Source: Phycisphaerae bacterium (lineage in GTDB: Bacteria; Planctomycetota; Phycisphaerae; WQYP01). Taken from it: a stretch of DNA of 64,000 nt. Of this stretch, positions 9,515 to 15,478 are shown piece after piece (the stretch's first letter is position 1; each line of letters begins with the position of its first letter). A program made the translations under genes and the position numbers. The stretch is taken from the NCBI GenBank assembly GCA_035524355.1, contig DATKPA010000021.1, positions 1 to 64,000 on the forward strand, given 5' to 3'. Under the pieces are notes generated by a model. The model was not told where the DNA came from. It did not search any database and saw only the letters and a list, made by a program, of their open reading frames with translations.

Positions 9515-9554
9515 TCTCTTTGTGGTCCTTTGTGCCTTTGTGTCCTTCGTGTTT
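9515..9554. repeat. CTTTGTG-type heptamer tandem array
   Basis: tctctttgtggtcctttgtgcctttgtgtccttcgtgttt; related arrays at 12124-12166, 13021-13058, 35043-35082. Confidence 0.55.
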
Positions 9555-9568
9555 AATCGTCGTCCGAA

Positions 9569-9642
9569 TAGCGGGAGTTGGATTCGAACCAACGAATCGC
9601 AGCGTATGAAACTGCGGACTTTGACCACTCGTCCATCCCGCA
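9569..9642 (-). tRNA. tRNA-Met(CAT), elongator-like
   Basis: anticodon arm GCAGT-TTCATAC-GCTGC; 1:72 U-U mismatch; 3-bp D-stem. Confidence 0.65.
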
Positions 9643-9658
9643 ATGAATCCAGAACCAC

Positions 9659-9700
9659 ATCTCTGTGCGTCTCTGTGCCCTCTGTGACTCTGTGGTTTCT
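9659..9700. repeat. CTCTGTG heptamer tandem array
   Basis: atctctgtgcgtctctgtgccctctgtgactctgtggtttc, 4 units, same orientation as 9515-9554, flanking the tRNA-Met gene. Confidence 0.55.
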
Positions 9701-9726
9701 CACCTCTCGCTAACCGTGTGAGCGCA

Positions 9727-9800
9727 TCGCGGAGGAGGGACTCGCACCCTCAACCCTCGGCGTATGAAGCCGCCGCTCTTCCTGTTTGAGCTACCCCGCG
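9727..9800 (-). tRNA. tRNA-fMet(CAT), initiator-like
   Basis: acceptor CGCGGGG (as in E. coli initiator), three consecutive G-C pairs closing anticodon loop (GGC/GCC), anticodon loop TTCATAC; T-loop TGCGAGT. Confidence 0.65.
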
Positions 9801-9953
9801 TTTTCCCTTCCCCGACGCCGGCGGTCCCCGACGAAAGCCACGTCCCCTCGCGAAGCACGCGCTTCGCCCTTCTCTCAGAGGACTCGTCTTTCACCTGATG
9901 GGGTGAGGGACCGCCGGCCCGACATGAGCATCCCGCCCCCCCCCCATTCCCGT

Positions 9954-10574
9954 TCAACTCTTGAGCTCCACGTTCCAGTACGCATCGTCGACAAACTGCG
10001 CCCACGATGCGTGCTGCACTCGAATCAGCTGCGACGTAGACTTGAGCGCCAGCGGCGGCCGAATGAGCCGCATGCCAACTTGCGCTGCCGTCTTATCCGC
10101 CTTTCGCGAGTTGCAGCTCGTGCAGGCGCAGACGAGGTTTTCCCAGGTGTCGCCGCCGCCGCGCGAGCGCGGAATCACGTGGTCGAGTGAGAGTTCGCTC
10201 GTCGAAAACCGCTTCCCGCAGTACTGGCACGTGTTGGCGTCGCGCTGGTAGATGTTCCGCCGGTTGAGCGGAACGCCCCCGTTGCGCGGGCGCCGGTGCC
10301 GATCGAAGCGGGTGAGCCGTACAACATTCGGCGCTGCAACACATCCGCGCACGAGACCGACCCATGCGTGCTTGTCCGATTCGAATTCCGCCCGCAGCAT
10401 CGAGAGCTCGCGCCACGAGCTGAAGTCATAGGTCGCCAGGTGCGGATCTTCGGTGTCGACCACTTCCGCCGCGCCGGTAACGAGCAGGCTCAGTGCACGA
10501 CGTACGTCGATCACACGGATCGGAGCAAAGGTCTTGTTGAGCGTTAACACGGGAGATTCCAGAATCGCGGACAT
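9954..10574 (-). CDS. HNH endonuclease
   Basis: YCGKRFSTSELSLDHVIPRSRGGGDTWENLVCACTSCNSRK is a canonical HNH/McrA-type motif; start placed at MSAILESP because the longer ORF (to 10889) would run through tRNA genes. Confidence 0.75.
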   Translation of the reverse strand: MSAILESPVLTLNKTFAPIRVIDVRRALSLLVTGAAEVVDTEDPHLATYDFSSWRELSMLRAEFESDKHAWVGLVRGCVAAPNVVRLTRFDRHRRPRNGGVPLNRRNIYQRDANTCQYCGKRFSTSELSLDHVIPRSRGGGDTWENLVCACTSCNSRKADKTAAQVGMRLIRPPLALKSTSQLIRVQHASWAQFVDDAYWNVELKS

Positions 10575-12504: not shown

Positions 12505-13020
12505 AGAACAAACTGCACCAAGGGCGCTGGTCGCAAAGAAACAAAACATATTGGGAGAAAAAAGGCCGCGACCAGCGGGGGGAGTTACCTGTTCATTGAA
12601 TCGCTACCAAGCTGTGGCTGATAGCGTTCGATGACCAGGTCGCGGGAGGCGGTCGCGGGTTTCCCGGCGCTTGTATGGGCGCACAACACGACCGCTATCC
12701 GCTCTCTTGCGGACCATTGCGGTAAGAAGTTGTGCGTAAACGCCGACATTGAAAGAACACCTGAGAAAAGGTCTCTTACAAACAGACAACAAGTGTACCC
12801 ACTCGTTATCGACGATTCCTGCGAATCGCTGAAAGACTATACGCAGGAAGCATGCCAAAGGTGCGGGAAAGGCGCGCATATTTCTTTACGTGCTTTAGTC
12901 TAAACGACTTACACGATATCCGCACCCCACACATGCCTTCTCCCTATCCCCGCAGAACTCCGCATTTCTGATTACTTCGGATACACTTTCTATCCATTAA
13001 GATAGTCCACCTACCACACC

Positions 13021-13058
13021 GCTTCGTGGTCCTTAGTGCCTTTGTGCTCTTCGTGTTT
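13021..13058. repeat. CTTCGTG/CTTTGTG heptamer tandem array
   Basis: gcttcgtggtccttagtgcctttgtgctcttcgtgttt, immediately 3' of rtcR. Confidence 0.5.
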
Positions 13059-13077
13059 CCGTCCTCCCCGCGCGAAA

Positions 13078-14703
13078 TCACTCCGGCCGCAAATCGGACC
13101 AGCTCAACCCAAACCGCGCCAGATACTTCCGCAACCGATCCGCATCATTCGGCGCCTTCTTCTTCGCACGCGACGCCGCAAACAACTCCCGCCCCGCATC
13201 CGACAAGCTCCGCGCCCCCTCGCACACGCGCAGCACCTCCTCCAACTGCACCCGATCAAACCGATCCAGCCCCTCAATCGCTTTCGCAGACAAATGCCGC
13301 GAAAGCACCCCATCCCCCCCACCGCCACTCCCGCCCCCCGTCTTCCACGACGCCGCCAGCGCGAGAATTTCCTCTTCCACCTGCCCGAGCGTAATCCGCG
13401 CCCCGCCACCCCCGCCCGCCAGCGTCGCCATCCGATTGATCGCCGCATTCAGATCGCGGAAATTCCGCCGCCACTCCGCCCCCGGCGACACCGCAAACGC
13501 CAGAAACCGCTCCCGCGCCTCCTTATTGAACGTCACATTGTTCCCATTCACCCGGGCAAACTGCTCCAGCTCGTACGCCACGTTCGGCTCAATATCCTCC
13601 CGCCGCTCCTTGAGCGCGGGCAGCCGAAACGTCCACAAGTTGATCCGCGCAAACAAATCCTCCCGAAACCGCCCCGCCTCCACCTCGACGGAAAGATCCT
13701 TGTTCGTACCCGCAATCAACTGAAAATCGCTCCGCACCTCCACATCCGATCCCACGGGAAGAAATCTCTTTTCCTCGAGCGCCCGCAAAAGCATCGCCTG
13801 CTCGTCCACGCCGAGCTCGCCGACTTCGTCGAGGAACAGGGCCCCGCCGTCTGCCGCCCGGAGAAGGCCGGCGCGCGCGCCAATTGCTCCAGTAAAGGCG
13901 CCTTTCGTGTGACCGAAAAGGGCGGACATTGCCCCATCGCCGCGGATAGTCGCGCAGTTCACCTCCACAAAATTCCCACCGACCTGCCGGCGAAATTTTT
14001 TGAGCTCGAAGATGCGGCGGGCGAGCTGGCTCTTGCCTGCTCCCGTCGGACCCATCAGCAGCAGCGGGGCCTTGCTGTGGATTGCGACCCGTTCGATCTG
14101 CTCGATCAGCTTGTTGAAGGCGGCGTTTCGGGTCTCGATTCCGCTTTTCAAGAACGACAGGCTTTCCGTCTGTTCCACGGCAAAGCGTGAGGCGATCTTG
14201 TCGTACTTCGACAGATCGAGGTCGATGATCGAGTATCCCCCCGCCTCCGAACTCCGTCGGCCGTCTTCGCCGCGCGGCGGCGAGGTCTGCAACAGCTTCG
14301 CAGGAAAGTAATGCGCCTCCGTCAGCAGAAACAAACAGATCTGTGCGACGTGCGTCCCGGTCGTGATGTGAATCAGGTATTCTTCGCGCTCCGGTGCGAA
14401 GGGATATTTTTTCGCGAAATCCAGAAGCGCCGAATAGACCTCCTGGAAATCCCAGGGGTCGTTGAACTCGACCTCGTGCTGCCGGACCTCGGTGCTCGGC
14501 GACACGGTCCGAATATCCTCCGTCACCTGCTCCGCCAGTCGCTGAAACTTTTTCTGGGCGATCAACTCCACGCGATCGACGCACAATTCCTCGTGGCGGC
14601 ACATGGCGACGGTCGGCCGCCAGCGCTGCCACCGCGTCGCCCCACTCCCCGCGTCGACCACCGTTCCCAGCAATCCGATAATGACCTGCTTTTTCTGTGC
14701 CAT
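13078..14703 (-). CDS. rtcR: sigma-54-dependent transcriptional regulator RtcR (CARF sensor domain + AAA+ activator + HTH)
   Basis: 541 aa; N-terminal MAQKKQVIIGLLGTVVD... CARF-like region as in E. coli RtcR, central GPTGAGKSQLARRIF Walker A and GAFTGA sigma-54 contact motif, C-terminal HTH. Confidence 0.85.
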   Translation of the reverse strand: MAQKKQVIIGLLGTVVDAGSGATRWQRWRPTVAMCRHEELCVDRVELIAQKKFQRLAEQVTEDIRTVSPSTEVRQHEVEFNDPWDFQEVYSALLDFAKKYPFAPEREEYLIHITTGTHVAQICLFLLTEAHYFPAKLLQTSPPRGEDGRRSSEAGGYSIIDLDLSKYDKIASRFAVEQTESLSFLKSGIETRNAAFNKLIEQIERVAIHSKAPLLLMGPTGAGKSQLARRIFELKKFRRQVGGNFVEVNCATIRGDGAMSALFGHTKGAFTGAIGARAGLLRAADGGALFLDEVGELGVDEQAMLLRALEEKRFLPVGSDVEVRSDFQLIAGTNKDLSVEVEAGRFREDLFARINLWTFRLPALKERREDIEPNVAYELEQFARVNGNNVTFNKEARERFLAFAVSPGAEWRRNFRDLNAAINRMATLAGGGGGARITLGQVEEEILALAASWKTGGGSGGGGDGVLSRHLSAKAIEGLDRFDRVQLEEVLRVCEGARSLSDAGRELFAASRAKKKAPNDADRLRKYLARFGLSWSDLRPE

Positions 14704-14944
14704 AGCAAGAACTATACGGTCTTATCCCACAGGCTACAAATGAAATCCGCCGACGCAGCGTGGCATGCCCGCGTATCCGCCCACAACTTCCCTCAGATAC
14801 GCCTGTTATCTCCAATTCCACCAATGCCGCTTACACCAGGCACACTCCTCGCTATATCTCTCTCGCCTCGAAGCGTTGCTGGACGGCACGAGCGGGATTC
14901 CCGTTTCGCGTCCCGCCACAGGTTCGAAAACGTCGGAAGGCGCC

Positions 14945-15019
14945 GGGTAAGTAGCTCAGTGGTAGAGCATCGAGTTGTTAACTCGACTGACGCGGGTTCG
15001 ACTCCCGTCTCACCCTCCA
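14945..15019 (+). tRNA. tRNA-Asn(GTT), with encoded CCA
   Basis: GGGTAAGTAGCTCAGTGGTAGAGC...anticodon arm TCGAG-TTGTTAA-CTCGA, T-arm GCGGG-TTCGACT-CCCGT, 3' ...TCCA; one A-C mismatch in acceptor. Confidence 0.75.
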
Positions 15020-15395
15020 GATGGCTGAACACCATCCCGAGACCAGCGGCGAAAGCCGCAACCGACGCAGGCTGGGCCGACGAGGCGCTGTTGCTCGCCT
15101 GTCATCTTCCGCGGCGCCGGCCGCGCTCGTGCCCCCCCCCGGGGGATGGGCCGCGCCGTCGCCAACGAAGAATTGACACCGCATCGCAGCTTGCAGCCGG
15201 GAGGATCCCGCGAAAGCACGACCACGACACTGCCCCCCCCCGCTCGGTTCGCGCACTTGAGCGTGTAAACGCCGGTGCGCAGGACCGGGGCGGGCAAACG
15301 AGCCCTCTGCCTTCGTTGAATCCCGGCTCCGCGTGTCGATGCGGGGCGAGCCGGCGCTGAATCGCGCCCGGCCTGCGACTTTTAAAAATCCGTTT

Positions 15396-15478
15396 GAAAC
15401 CACGGAGCTCACGGAGAGCACGGAGGATTCAAACATAATAAAAGAAACTCCGTGCCCCTCCGTGCTCTCCGTGGTTTC
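15396..15478. repeat. hairpin element with CACGGAG heptamer-tandem arms
   Basis: 5' arm gaaaccacggagctcacggagagcacggag, 3' arm ctccgtgcccctccgtgctctccgtggtttc, AT-rich 22-nt loop; 30 nt upstream of SPFH gene start. Confidence 0.6.

Follow-up and report, generated by a model that had tools for sequence, protein, structure and literature searches.

A modular and widespread family of heptad-array elements in the intergenic spacers of a Phycisphaerae bacterium

Introduction

What are the short arrays of heptamers that recur between the genes of a Phycisphaerae bacterium, and what keeps them there? The question is raised by a 64,000-nt stretch of its genome (positions 1 to 64,000 of contig DATKPA010000021.1, assembly GCA_035524355.1; hereafter the window), in which units such as CACGAAG, CACAGAG or GAATGAC stand in tandem in many spacers, either as single arms or as inverted pairs that can fold into long hairpins. 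An initial annotation, made from the letters of the DNA, had described at least a dozen such loci as hairpins resembling miniature inverted-repeat transposable elements (MITEs) and as single-arm arrays, all of them belonging to one modular repeat system. We find that heptad-array elements are a modular, sequence-constrained and widespread intergenic superfamily that is apparently undescribed so far; a literature search for the heptads or the array sequences returned nothing bacterial.

The genes of the window are those of a bacterial chromosome (RecA, 6-phosphogluconate dehydrogenase or 6PGD, RtcR/RtcB, type IV pilus, an FtsX/ABC pair). The nearest named homologs of its 6PGD come from Phycisphaerae/Tepidisphaeraceae metagenome-assembled genomes (MAGs), Planctomycetota, and the window is part of a 221.5-kb contig from an ENA metagenome (ERZ27256510 k141_2185605). 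The core interval studied here lies within a minus-strand array of 30 tRNA genes (7868-12504) and continues into RtcR.

Results

Arrays of at least three copies, with a period of 7-10 and at most one mismatch, were searched in the window and in 20 Markov-2 randomisations of it. The window holds 30 of them and the randomised sequences 1-8 (mean ~3), which is about ten times chance. About 23 of the 30 draw on a recurring vocabulary of units, repeated 3-5 times with a period of 7-10 nt: CACGAAG/CACAAAG, CACAGAG, CACGGAG, CACGAAAG, AATTCTG, GAATGAC, AAAACAC, ATTGCCN, AATTACC and CATTTGTG. These vocabulary arrays are all in non-coding DNA (8.3 kb in total) and occupy 16 of the 55 spacers of at least 25 nt, which confirms the intergenic location claimed at the outset; the remaining arrays are codon-periodic tracts within genes. 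Codon-periodic repeats unrelated to the intergenic family include TCTTAA x5.5 (59006-59038), at the start of an open reading frame (ORF; 58998-60494), and the GGC/CGGTGG-type 21-mer repeats (53358-53643) of the ORF at 53272-53862. There are 6.2 arrays per 10 kb in the window and related loci, but 1.2 per 10 kb in the unrelated bacterial controls. These comprise 795 kb in 80 metagenome loci found via RtcR when orthologous tRNA arrays were sought; the closest of them (68-80% identity) are short or array-free. In these controls the family's units form no arrays save two ATTGCC-type matches.

Each module consists of 3-5 copies of a core of 6-7 nt, often with 1-3 variable bases between them, and comes either as a single arm or as an inverted pair of arms around a free loop, making an interrupted stem of 25-40 bp. 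The description of the units as tandem heptamers holds for several classes, but in the CACRRAG class each heptad is followed by a spacer of 1-3 nt that consists of 82-84% purines, so that the period is effectively 8-10. All the loci of the initial annotation were recovered at, or within a few bases of, their proposed positions by Tandem Repeats Finder (TRF), an inverted-repeat scan and direct reading. Three were absent from it: a pair of ATTGCCN arms (32990-33026/33425-33465), a perfect AATTACC x4 array (57919-57952) and a G-rich 15-mer present twice (11559-11590).

The four long hairpins that had been proposed fold far better than their shuffles, with minimum free energies (MFE) of -44 to -59 kcal/mol, z-scores of -5.5 to -10.7 and none of 200 shuffles as good. 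Single arms are unstructured as RNA (z +0.45 to +1.4), if anything less structured than shuffles. One member placed in the single-arm class, at 9659-9700, keeps a small stem foot: this CACAGAG x4 array (9647-9700, minus strand) has an AAAC head and a residual foot (AGAACCACA/TGTGGTTTCT), from which it may be a truncated hairpin. Neither the gathering threshold nor a cut-off of E<=1 gives an Rfam match at the arrays, and the hairpins match sub-threshold miRNA-precursor models only.

In the CACRRAG class every arm, single or paired, carries AAAC or AAC at its outer end, right before the first CAC. Single arms of the CACRAAG type are copies of a single 4-unit element of ~50 nt, GACGACGT-T-AAACACGAAG-(1-2 nt)-CACRAAG-(1-2 nt)-CACGAAG-GAC-CACGAAG. 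When a strict form of this pattern was scanned in one genome per species (185,579 species, 596 Gb; calculated chance expectation ~1e-6), it gave 24 matches, all in Phycisphaerae/Planctomycetota MAGs and 19 in a single one (bin242, JBQCGD01). The 29 copies that we aligned have in common the GACGACGT leader, which the pattern does not require and which a C-run often precedes; GAC stands before the last unit, the irregular spacers are kept from copy to copy, and the copies are located 6-26 nt past a stop codon. Family elements as a whole are confined to spacers, typically from a few to ~25 nt past the stop. Neighbouring 8-kb loci are rich in the window's vocabulary and add further units (GGTTAAGT, AAGAAGC, GGGGTCT, AATCGAAA and others), often with several modules in a row and with many inverted pairs, which brings the distinct unit families to at least 12.

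The C-run precedes several related CACGAAG copies directly after the stop codon, and its length varies among orthologs (C11 in the window, C8 in the related locus L002, absent from L117). Homopolymers of 9-15 C lie in spacers of the window (8209-8223, 9936-9946, 35025-35035, 15135-15145, 15235-15243).

How long do the elements stay in place? The gene order of the window between 30 and 42 kb is fully kept in two relatives, L002 and L117 (the latter being bin242), and around 2Hacid-6PGD-Ldh2-SDR in L118, 2Hacid being a 2-hydroxyacid dehydrogenase; L119 shares the 2Hacid/6PGD junction. In pairwise comparison these genomes have identities of 0.31-0.66 at the 4-fold-degenerate sites of 6PGD, with most values at 0.41-0.56, and the random expectation by composition is 0.39, so that neutral (synonymous) sites are close to saturation. 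At this distance the 6PGD/Ldh2 spacer still holds a 4-unit CACGAAG element in the window, in L002 and, as a variant, in L117, with four units in all three; the copies of the window and L002 differ in two places (one substitution and a 1-nt spacer indel). The Ldh2/SDR spacer is unalignable between these same two genomes. The 2Hacid/6PGD spacer carries a CACAGAG x3 hairpin in L002, L117, L118 and L119, with 27/28 and 29/30 positions of its two arms invariant in the four genomes, the variable positions all in one inner spacer, and the loops and flanks unalignable. Inside the heptads of these four orthologous hairpins no compensatory change was found; sequence itself, and not pairing alone, is therefore maintained. 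The retention of orthologous copies under saturated divergence argues for constraint rather than recent transposition.

At the same junctions whole modules are exchanged. The CACAGAG hairpin of the 2Hacid/6PGD spacer is replaced in the window, L109-L114 and L115 by an ATTGCCN cassette with a gene inside; the CACGAAG array of the 6PGD/Ldh2 spacer is replaced in L118 by a canonical hairpin with stem and T-run; and the GAATGAC hairpin of the FtsX/ABC spacer is absent from the orthologous spacer of L002.

The family is not restricted to Planctomycetota. In the viral contigs of IMG/VR we found at least 120 stretches for each of two patterns (three CACRAAG heptads; three ACCACRGAG heptads) and 41 for GAATGAC x3. 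Among the matches listed, the non-redundant viral CACRAAG arrays have exactly three units in 165 of 176 cases and a TT[CA]AC head that is not part of the pattern (A at -2 in 135, C at -1 in 137), and about a third have an inverted partner within 140 nt, with a median loop of 38 nt and an end in GTGAA or GTTCA. The spacers of these hairpins are often complementary between arms, yet different from locus to locus, and the ACCACRGAG set behaves in the same way as regards head and pairing. Phage hallmark genes are present in four of six sampled contigs, namely for a tape-measure protein, large terminase, capsid protein or VapE-like primase domain. Exact-protein look-up of the phage contigs led to Bacteroides and Capnocytophaga prophages, one contig being a Bacteroides prophage by its primase/helicase WP_032541401 ('MULTISPECIES [Bacteroides]'), with a hairpin that follows the primase stop codon and precedes the next start: TTCACCACAGAG-TA-CACGGAG-GA-CACAGAG, a 42-nt loop, and CTCTGTG-TT-CTCTGTG-TC-CTCCGTGGTGAA. 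Several low-GC viral matches to the CACGAAG pattern code for DHE/EEH repeats and were set outside the family, as was L277, a PBCV-like match for the GAATGAC pattern.

A 36-nt arm, used as a BLASTN query on the plasmids of PLSDB, matched 86 places distributed over 31 records. Almost all of these places are in unannotated DNA, with one listed match overlapping a hypothetical-protein gene. The records come from Bacteroides finegoldii/ovatus (16), several Nostocales and Gloeocapsa, Gemmatirosa kalamazoonensis and Pseudoalteromonas. In B. ovatus the hairpin occupies most of the 100-bp gmd-fcl spacer. G. kalamazoonensis has 28 arm places on two megaplasmids, and on its plasmid 2 (NZ_CP007130.1 83476-83655) a CACAGAG/CACGGAG hairpin is lodged precisely in the loop of another hairpin, one with CCGCAGAG arms. 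Anabaena, Nostoc and Calothrix records contain CACGAAG and CACAGAG arrays with the family's head, and a plasmid spacer of Anabaena cylindrica has a GAACCACGAAG... array beside CGCAAAG and TCACCTG arrays, which ties the family to the classical cyanobacterial landscape of short tandemly repeated repetitive (STRR) sequences. The same arm query had no match in 5,426 complete E. coli genomes. By sequence, the CACRRAG type (three CAC[AG][AG]AG heptads, TT[CA]AC head, GTGAA tail) spans at least five phyla as well as phages. As the initial annotation had proposed, we are dealing with one modular system and not with random low complexity: the units, the heads and the fixed counts of 3-4 units recur in relatives, phages and other phyla, and the architecture is shared and expanded to 19 strict copies in one MAG, where unrelated tracts without expansion had been named as the contrary outcome.

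The larger cassette that replaces the CACAGAG hairpin in the window (32990-33465, plus strand) runs from an ATTGCCN arm (32990-33026) through an ORF (33046-33441) to a complementary arm (33425-33465), between the 2Hacid stop and the 6PGD start. The ORF, of 131 aa, belongs to the '23S rRNA intervening sequence protein'/four-helix-bundle family (PF05635, TIGR02436), and its nearest solved structure is 2RLD, with five chains deposited; the gene is missing from the public gene list of the contig. The arm duplex reaches -47.5 kcal/mol versus -18 +/- 4 for shuffled arms. Homologs with 75-79% identity occupy the same 2Hacid/6PGD site with like arms (L109-L115), and homologs with 55-57% identity in other genomes (L400/L403) lie in the nuoA/nuoB spacer, also bracketed by ATTGCCN arrays. 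In total, complementary ATTGCCN arms (-36 to -49 versus -15 to -21 kcal/mol shuffled) bracket five PF05635 genes, distributed over two operon sites that are unrelated, and so arms and ORF travel as a unit. The base of the stem abuts the upstream stop codon and, in L400/L403, also the downstream start (nuoA stop, nuoB start). A hairpin of the same arms without cargo exists in bin242 (L011 5311-5376); ATTGCCN arms with and without cargo, together with the nested Gemmatirosa hairpin, point to insertion. A profile hidden Markov model search for PF05635 in all ORFs of 3.7 Mb of loci returned only the known cassettes. The arrangement is that of the 23S rRNA intervening sequence (IVS), after which the protein family is named and where a PF05635/TIGR02436 ORF also lies inside stem-forming inverted repeats, but the cassette is found in protein-coding operons (2Hacid/6PGD, nuoA/nuoB) instead of a 23S rRNA helix, and its arms are ATTGCCN heptad arrays.

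As to polarity, single CACRAAG arms have the end of a long ORF within 60 nt upstream on the sense strand in 84 cases and on the antisense strand in 46. The strand that carries them is the locally G-rich one in 20 of 23 informative cases from Phycisphaerae loci and in 61 of 80 from viral loci. Polarity thus fits transcription and replication strand alike, and it is not attributable to one cause, because GC skew in this genome is extreme (up to |0.45|) and independent of gene direction. Within the window (1-64000) the skew takes values of -0.3 to -0.57 and +0.15 to +0.36 irrespective of gene orientation, and it changes sign at ~30.6 kb, between recA and the next co-oriented gene, and again at ~53 kb. 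A replication origin at the switch was considered and dropped, as there is no DnaA-box cluster there, which leaves an inversion or some other boundary of strand bias as possibilities.

Discussion

How can a repeat be this widespread, this constrained and this often exchanged? The reading that we favour, tentatively and with somewhat less than even confidence, is that heptad arrays are cassettes akin to STRRs and repetitive extragenic palindromic (REP) sequences that act at cistron boundaries, the hairpins as long RNA stems and the single arms as platforms. Over evolutionary time the arrays would come into spacers as small cassettes, and the inverted form, once transcribed, would make a long stem at the boundary. 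Such a stem could serve RNase III-type processing, or protect or terminate 3' ends, as the 23S rRNA IVS and REPs do: rRNA IVS stems are excised by RNase III, and known REPs stabilise upstream mRNA. By looping out cargo such as the PF05635 gene, it would also leave the flanking stop and start adjacent. Single arms may instead offer unstructured, purine-rich platforms to a sequence-specific factor. A boundary-stem role would explain why some hairpin is kept at a spacer while its identity changes.

Several observations weigh against this reading. Heptad sequence is conserved without covariation, which a purely structural role would not need. Among 21 hairpins between co-oriented genes, the asymmetry of G:U pairs gives no signal (sense versus antisense 11:10), and hairpin stability is equal on both strands, so that the RNA strand is not singled out. 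Single arms cannot form stems, and for the elements between tRNA genes there is no cistron boundary on which to act. The orientation of single arms tracks GC skew (20:3, 61:19) at least as well as gene direction, and a DNA- or replication-level process would give the same. Finally, the hairpins have no downstream U-run, their 3' arm being followed by GTGAAT, GTGAAA, GTTCAA and the like, and they are hence not canonical intrinsic (Rho-independent) terminators, which are present elsewhere in related loci (L008, L023, L118).

The elements might also be selfish, non-autonomous mobile DNA, like MITEs or REPINs (REP doublets), whose heptads bind a mobilising protein and are conserved by the needs of that machinery. 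We consider this rather unlikely. It would account for the spread across phyla and phages, for identical arm types with and without cargo and a hairpin nested in the loop of another, for presence/absence and module swaps at orthologous spacers, for the expansion in one MAG, and for a strong G-rich-strand bias like that of elements moving via single-stranded DNA. The resemblance to MITEs extends to small, non-coding, multicopy elements with inverted ends, the outer arms being complementary (AAACCAC.../...GTGGTTT or TTCAC.../...GTGAA), and to one type with a larger, gene-carrying relative. However, the MITE-like label given initially did not survive comparison: the hairpins examined have no flanking direct repeats (a check by eye, not statistical) and thus no target-site duplications, loops are unrelated between copies with no conserved internal sequence, and no cognate transposase is linked to them, the PF05635 protein being the only cargo found. 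Neither this protein nor another recurrent gene adjoins the arrays in the 3.7 Mb of loci, and orthologous copies stay put with invariant arms across saturated divergence. The sole transposase of the window, a Y1/IS200-like ORF of 160 aa (1803-2285, minus strand; PF01797, NF033573), is flanked instead by inverted hits to the Acido-Lenti-1 RNA (RF01687; 1669-1714 minus and 2307-2352 plus), the only two in the window. This layout resembles that of REP-associated tyrosine transposases (RAYTs) with their REPs or of IS200 with its terminal hairpins, and suggests that the Acido-Lenti-1 motif forms the terminus, or the REP, of an element with a Y1 transposase and is not a free-standing small RNA.

Alternatively, the arrays could act as DNA, either as binding sites comparable to the heptad operators of the ribbon-helix-helix (RHH) omega repressor or as polar motifs such as Chi and KOPS (FtsK-orienting polar sequences), inverted pairs then being bidirectional sites. 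That it is sequence and not pairing that is conserved, with no covariation in the heptads, is what one would expect of such sites, as are fixed unit numbers (three in 165/176 viral arrays among the matches listed, four in the Phycisphaerae element), equal hairpin stability on both strands, and an orientation that follows GC skew (20:3, 61:19) with purine-rich motifs on the G-rich strand that resemble the known polar motifs. We nevertheless judge it unlikely. At least 12 unit families are too many for a single reader, a period of 7-10 bp is out of phase with the DNA helix, the tight placement relative to stop and start codons is left unexplained, and Chi and KOPS are normally scattered through genes rather than clustered in spacers.

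The cassette raises a more specific idea, that PF05635 proteins (Avd-like, pentameric four-helix bundles) bind heptad arrays. A ring of about five subunits might read 3-5 heptads in the way TRAP reads GAG repeats, and the ORF cassettes would be the complete form, from which cargo-less hairpins and single arms derive. This idea is a long shot in our estimation. If it were true, PF05635 and its heptads would be an unrecognised protein-repeat system in at least five bacterial phyla and in phages, and the orphan '23S IVS protein' family would gain a function.

For single arms only, translation offers a further explanation: the U-free CACRAAG-RR arrays, with Shine-Dalgarno-like AAGG/GGAG/GAGG cores, would be leaders that hold or recruit 30S subunits, as standby or coupling sites, in the stretch from a stop codon to the following start. 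Where the flanking genes are co-oriented, arms lie 16-25 nt before the next start, many phage arrays stand 5-35 nt before an ATG, the spacers between heptads are 82-84% purine, the arms have no RNA structure, and a similar proposal exists for TAACTGA repeats (PMC4679880). Yet identical elements occur between untranslated tRNA genes, ~30% of copies run antisense to the genes on either side, and starts within 60 nt downstream are as frequent in antisense as in sense (49 versus 47), which makes a leader function very doubtful.

Neutral local slippage, that is, unrelated simple-sequence tracts of the kind Mrazek described as long simple sequence repeats (SSRs), is barely credible: heptanucleotide SSRs are over-represented in some bacterial genomes (PMC4679880, PMC4692102) and the strict period-7 AATTACC x4 and AATTCTG arrays look like ordinary microsatellites, but units, heads and unit counts recur across genomes and phyla with conserved irregular spacers, unit number does not drift at orthologous sites under saturated divergence, and arrays are missing from E. 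coli and, but for two ATTGCC-type matches, from 795 kb of controls, so that slippage is largely refuted for the CACRRAG, ATTGCCN and GAATGAC families.

The closest known relatives are the cyanobacterial STRR sequences and heptanucleotide long SSRs, reportedly described by Mazel in 1990 and Mrazek in 2007, which likewise have ~7-nt tandem units in few copies per locus at many intergenic loci, sometimes as inverted pairs. The family differs from them in a fixed unit number (three or four) that does not vary by slippage, in its irregular purine spacer, conserved outer head and constraint at orthologous sites, in its reach into Planctomycetota, Bacteroidota, Gemmatimonadota and phages, and in the link to the PF05635 cassette. 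Heptanucleotide repeats of other sequence are the GGGAATC/GGGGATT repeats of Xanthomonas and Nostoc (PMC4692102) and the TAACTGA direct repeats of Beggiatoaceae, Cyanobacteria and Bacteroidetes (MacGregor 2015, PMC4679880). The latter share with our elements 2-6 heptamer copies, an intergenic position near starts, a patchy distribution across phyla including Cyanobacteria and Bacteroidetes, and no known mechanism; they differ in their unit, whereas the family has many unit types per genome, frequent hairpin pairs and a mainly post-stop placement. REPs, bacterial interspersed mosaic elements (BIMEs) and REPINs (PMC3116915, PMC3733652) are also short, intergenic, arranged as inverted doublets at gene 3' ends or between cistrons and vertically retained, but the arms of the family are tandem heptads without a GTAG/CGTC-tagged palindrome or a linked RAYT, and its single arms are not palindromic. 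Resemblances to boxA, attC, recombination signal sequences (RSS), the sarcin-ricin loop, DnaA boxes and promoter -35 elements were dropped as resemblance only.

Heptanucleotide repeats (STRR, TAACTGA, GGGAATC) have been on record for 35 years; no mechanism has come to light, and each was seen as the curiosity of a lineage. One architecture is now common to Planctomycetota, Bacteroidota, Cyanobacteria, Gemmatimonadota, a gammaproteobacterium and many phages, and this reach, the carriage by phages and the PF05635 link set the family apart from ordinary repeats. Copies in the tractable Bacteroides ovatus (gmd-fcl) and Nostoc make the question testable there. In practice, the elements fill spacers within operons and tRNA arrays; they interrupt assemblies and may be annotated wrongly as ORFs or small RNAs.

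Other features of the window

Within the tRNA array, an AATTCTG x4.6 array (8305-8339; seen by TRF, in the sequence and on the spacer map) fills the spacer between two tRNA-Arg genes. The tRNA-Met/tRNA-Ile spacer holds a 4-unit CACRAAG element on the minus strand (9515-9554), TTAAACACGAAG-GA-CACAAAG-G-CACAAAG-GAC-CACAAAG, which is unstructured as RNA and sense on the tRNA strand. In the tRNA-Asp/tRNA-Tyr spacer there is a hairpin with AAAACAC-type arms (10955-11056; MFE -44.3, z -5.5), whose loop has overlapping GCGATCGC-type palindromes (CGCGCGATCGCGATC) at 10980-11018, the HIP1 octamer known from cyanobacteria. The tRNA-Gln/tRNA-Arg spacer carries the hairpin TTAACCACAGAG-(NN-CACAGAG)x3 / (CTCTGTG-NN)x3-GTGGTTTA (11439-11548; MFE -58.7, z -9.5), abutted by the G-rich 15-mer CGGGGGAAGGGGGGA found twice by TRF at 11559-11590. 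A further 4-unit CACGAAG element (12124-12166, minus strand) separates tRNA-Ser from tRNA-Glu, and another (13021-13058, minus strand) lies in sense 19 nt past the RtcR stop codon.

Beyond RtcR, the hairpin TGAAACCACGGAG-(NN-CACGGAG)x2...(CTCCGTG)x3-GTTTCA (15395-15479; MFE -50.9, z -10.7) stands 31 nt upstream of an SPFH/Band-7 gene, and a CACGAAAGA x3 array (23599-23627, minus strand) lies between two minus-strand genes. A composite spacer has TCATCT x5.7 followed by ATTCTGA x4.6 (24795-24859), and three modules in a row, CCATTTGTGT x3, an ATTCTGA-like one and CAATGACT x4.5, precede recA (28806-28910). These three are spanned by a public gene call of 165 aa (28399-28896; L001 9353-9850) that has no Pfam hit on record, lacks the GC3 pattern of the window's coding ORFs, and is probably spurious. 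The 6PGD stop/Ldh_2 start spacer consists of poly-C (11) and a 4-unit CACGAAG element (35025-35081, plus strand). The gap between the two genes of the ABC-transporter operon (FtsX permease and ABC ATPase) is filled, as the initial annotation stated, by a hairpin, with GAATGAC x4-5 arms (40776-40931; MFE -54.3, z -6.8). The AATTACC unit of the intergenic perfect array at 57919-57952 is also present in three related loci (L020, L023, L025).

Unlike these modules, a near-perfect hairpin of 166 nt (27685-27850), with arms of ~57-81 nt, in the spacer between two minus-strand genes, is not built of heptads; it has no Rfam match, and its folding energy is -100.7 kcal/mol for the plus strand, compared with -84.6 for the minus strand. 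The tRNA array itself, with its 30 genes on a single strand, represents all 20 amino acids and is interrupted by an HNH endonuclease gene of 208 aa (9954-10580, minus strand). It adjoins the RNA-repair genes RtcR/RtcB (13078-14703, 17434-19032), and two more tRNA genes lie on the opposite strand.

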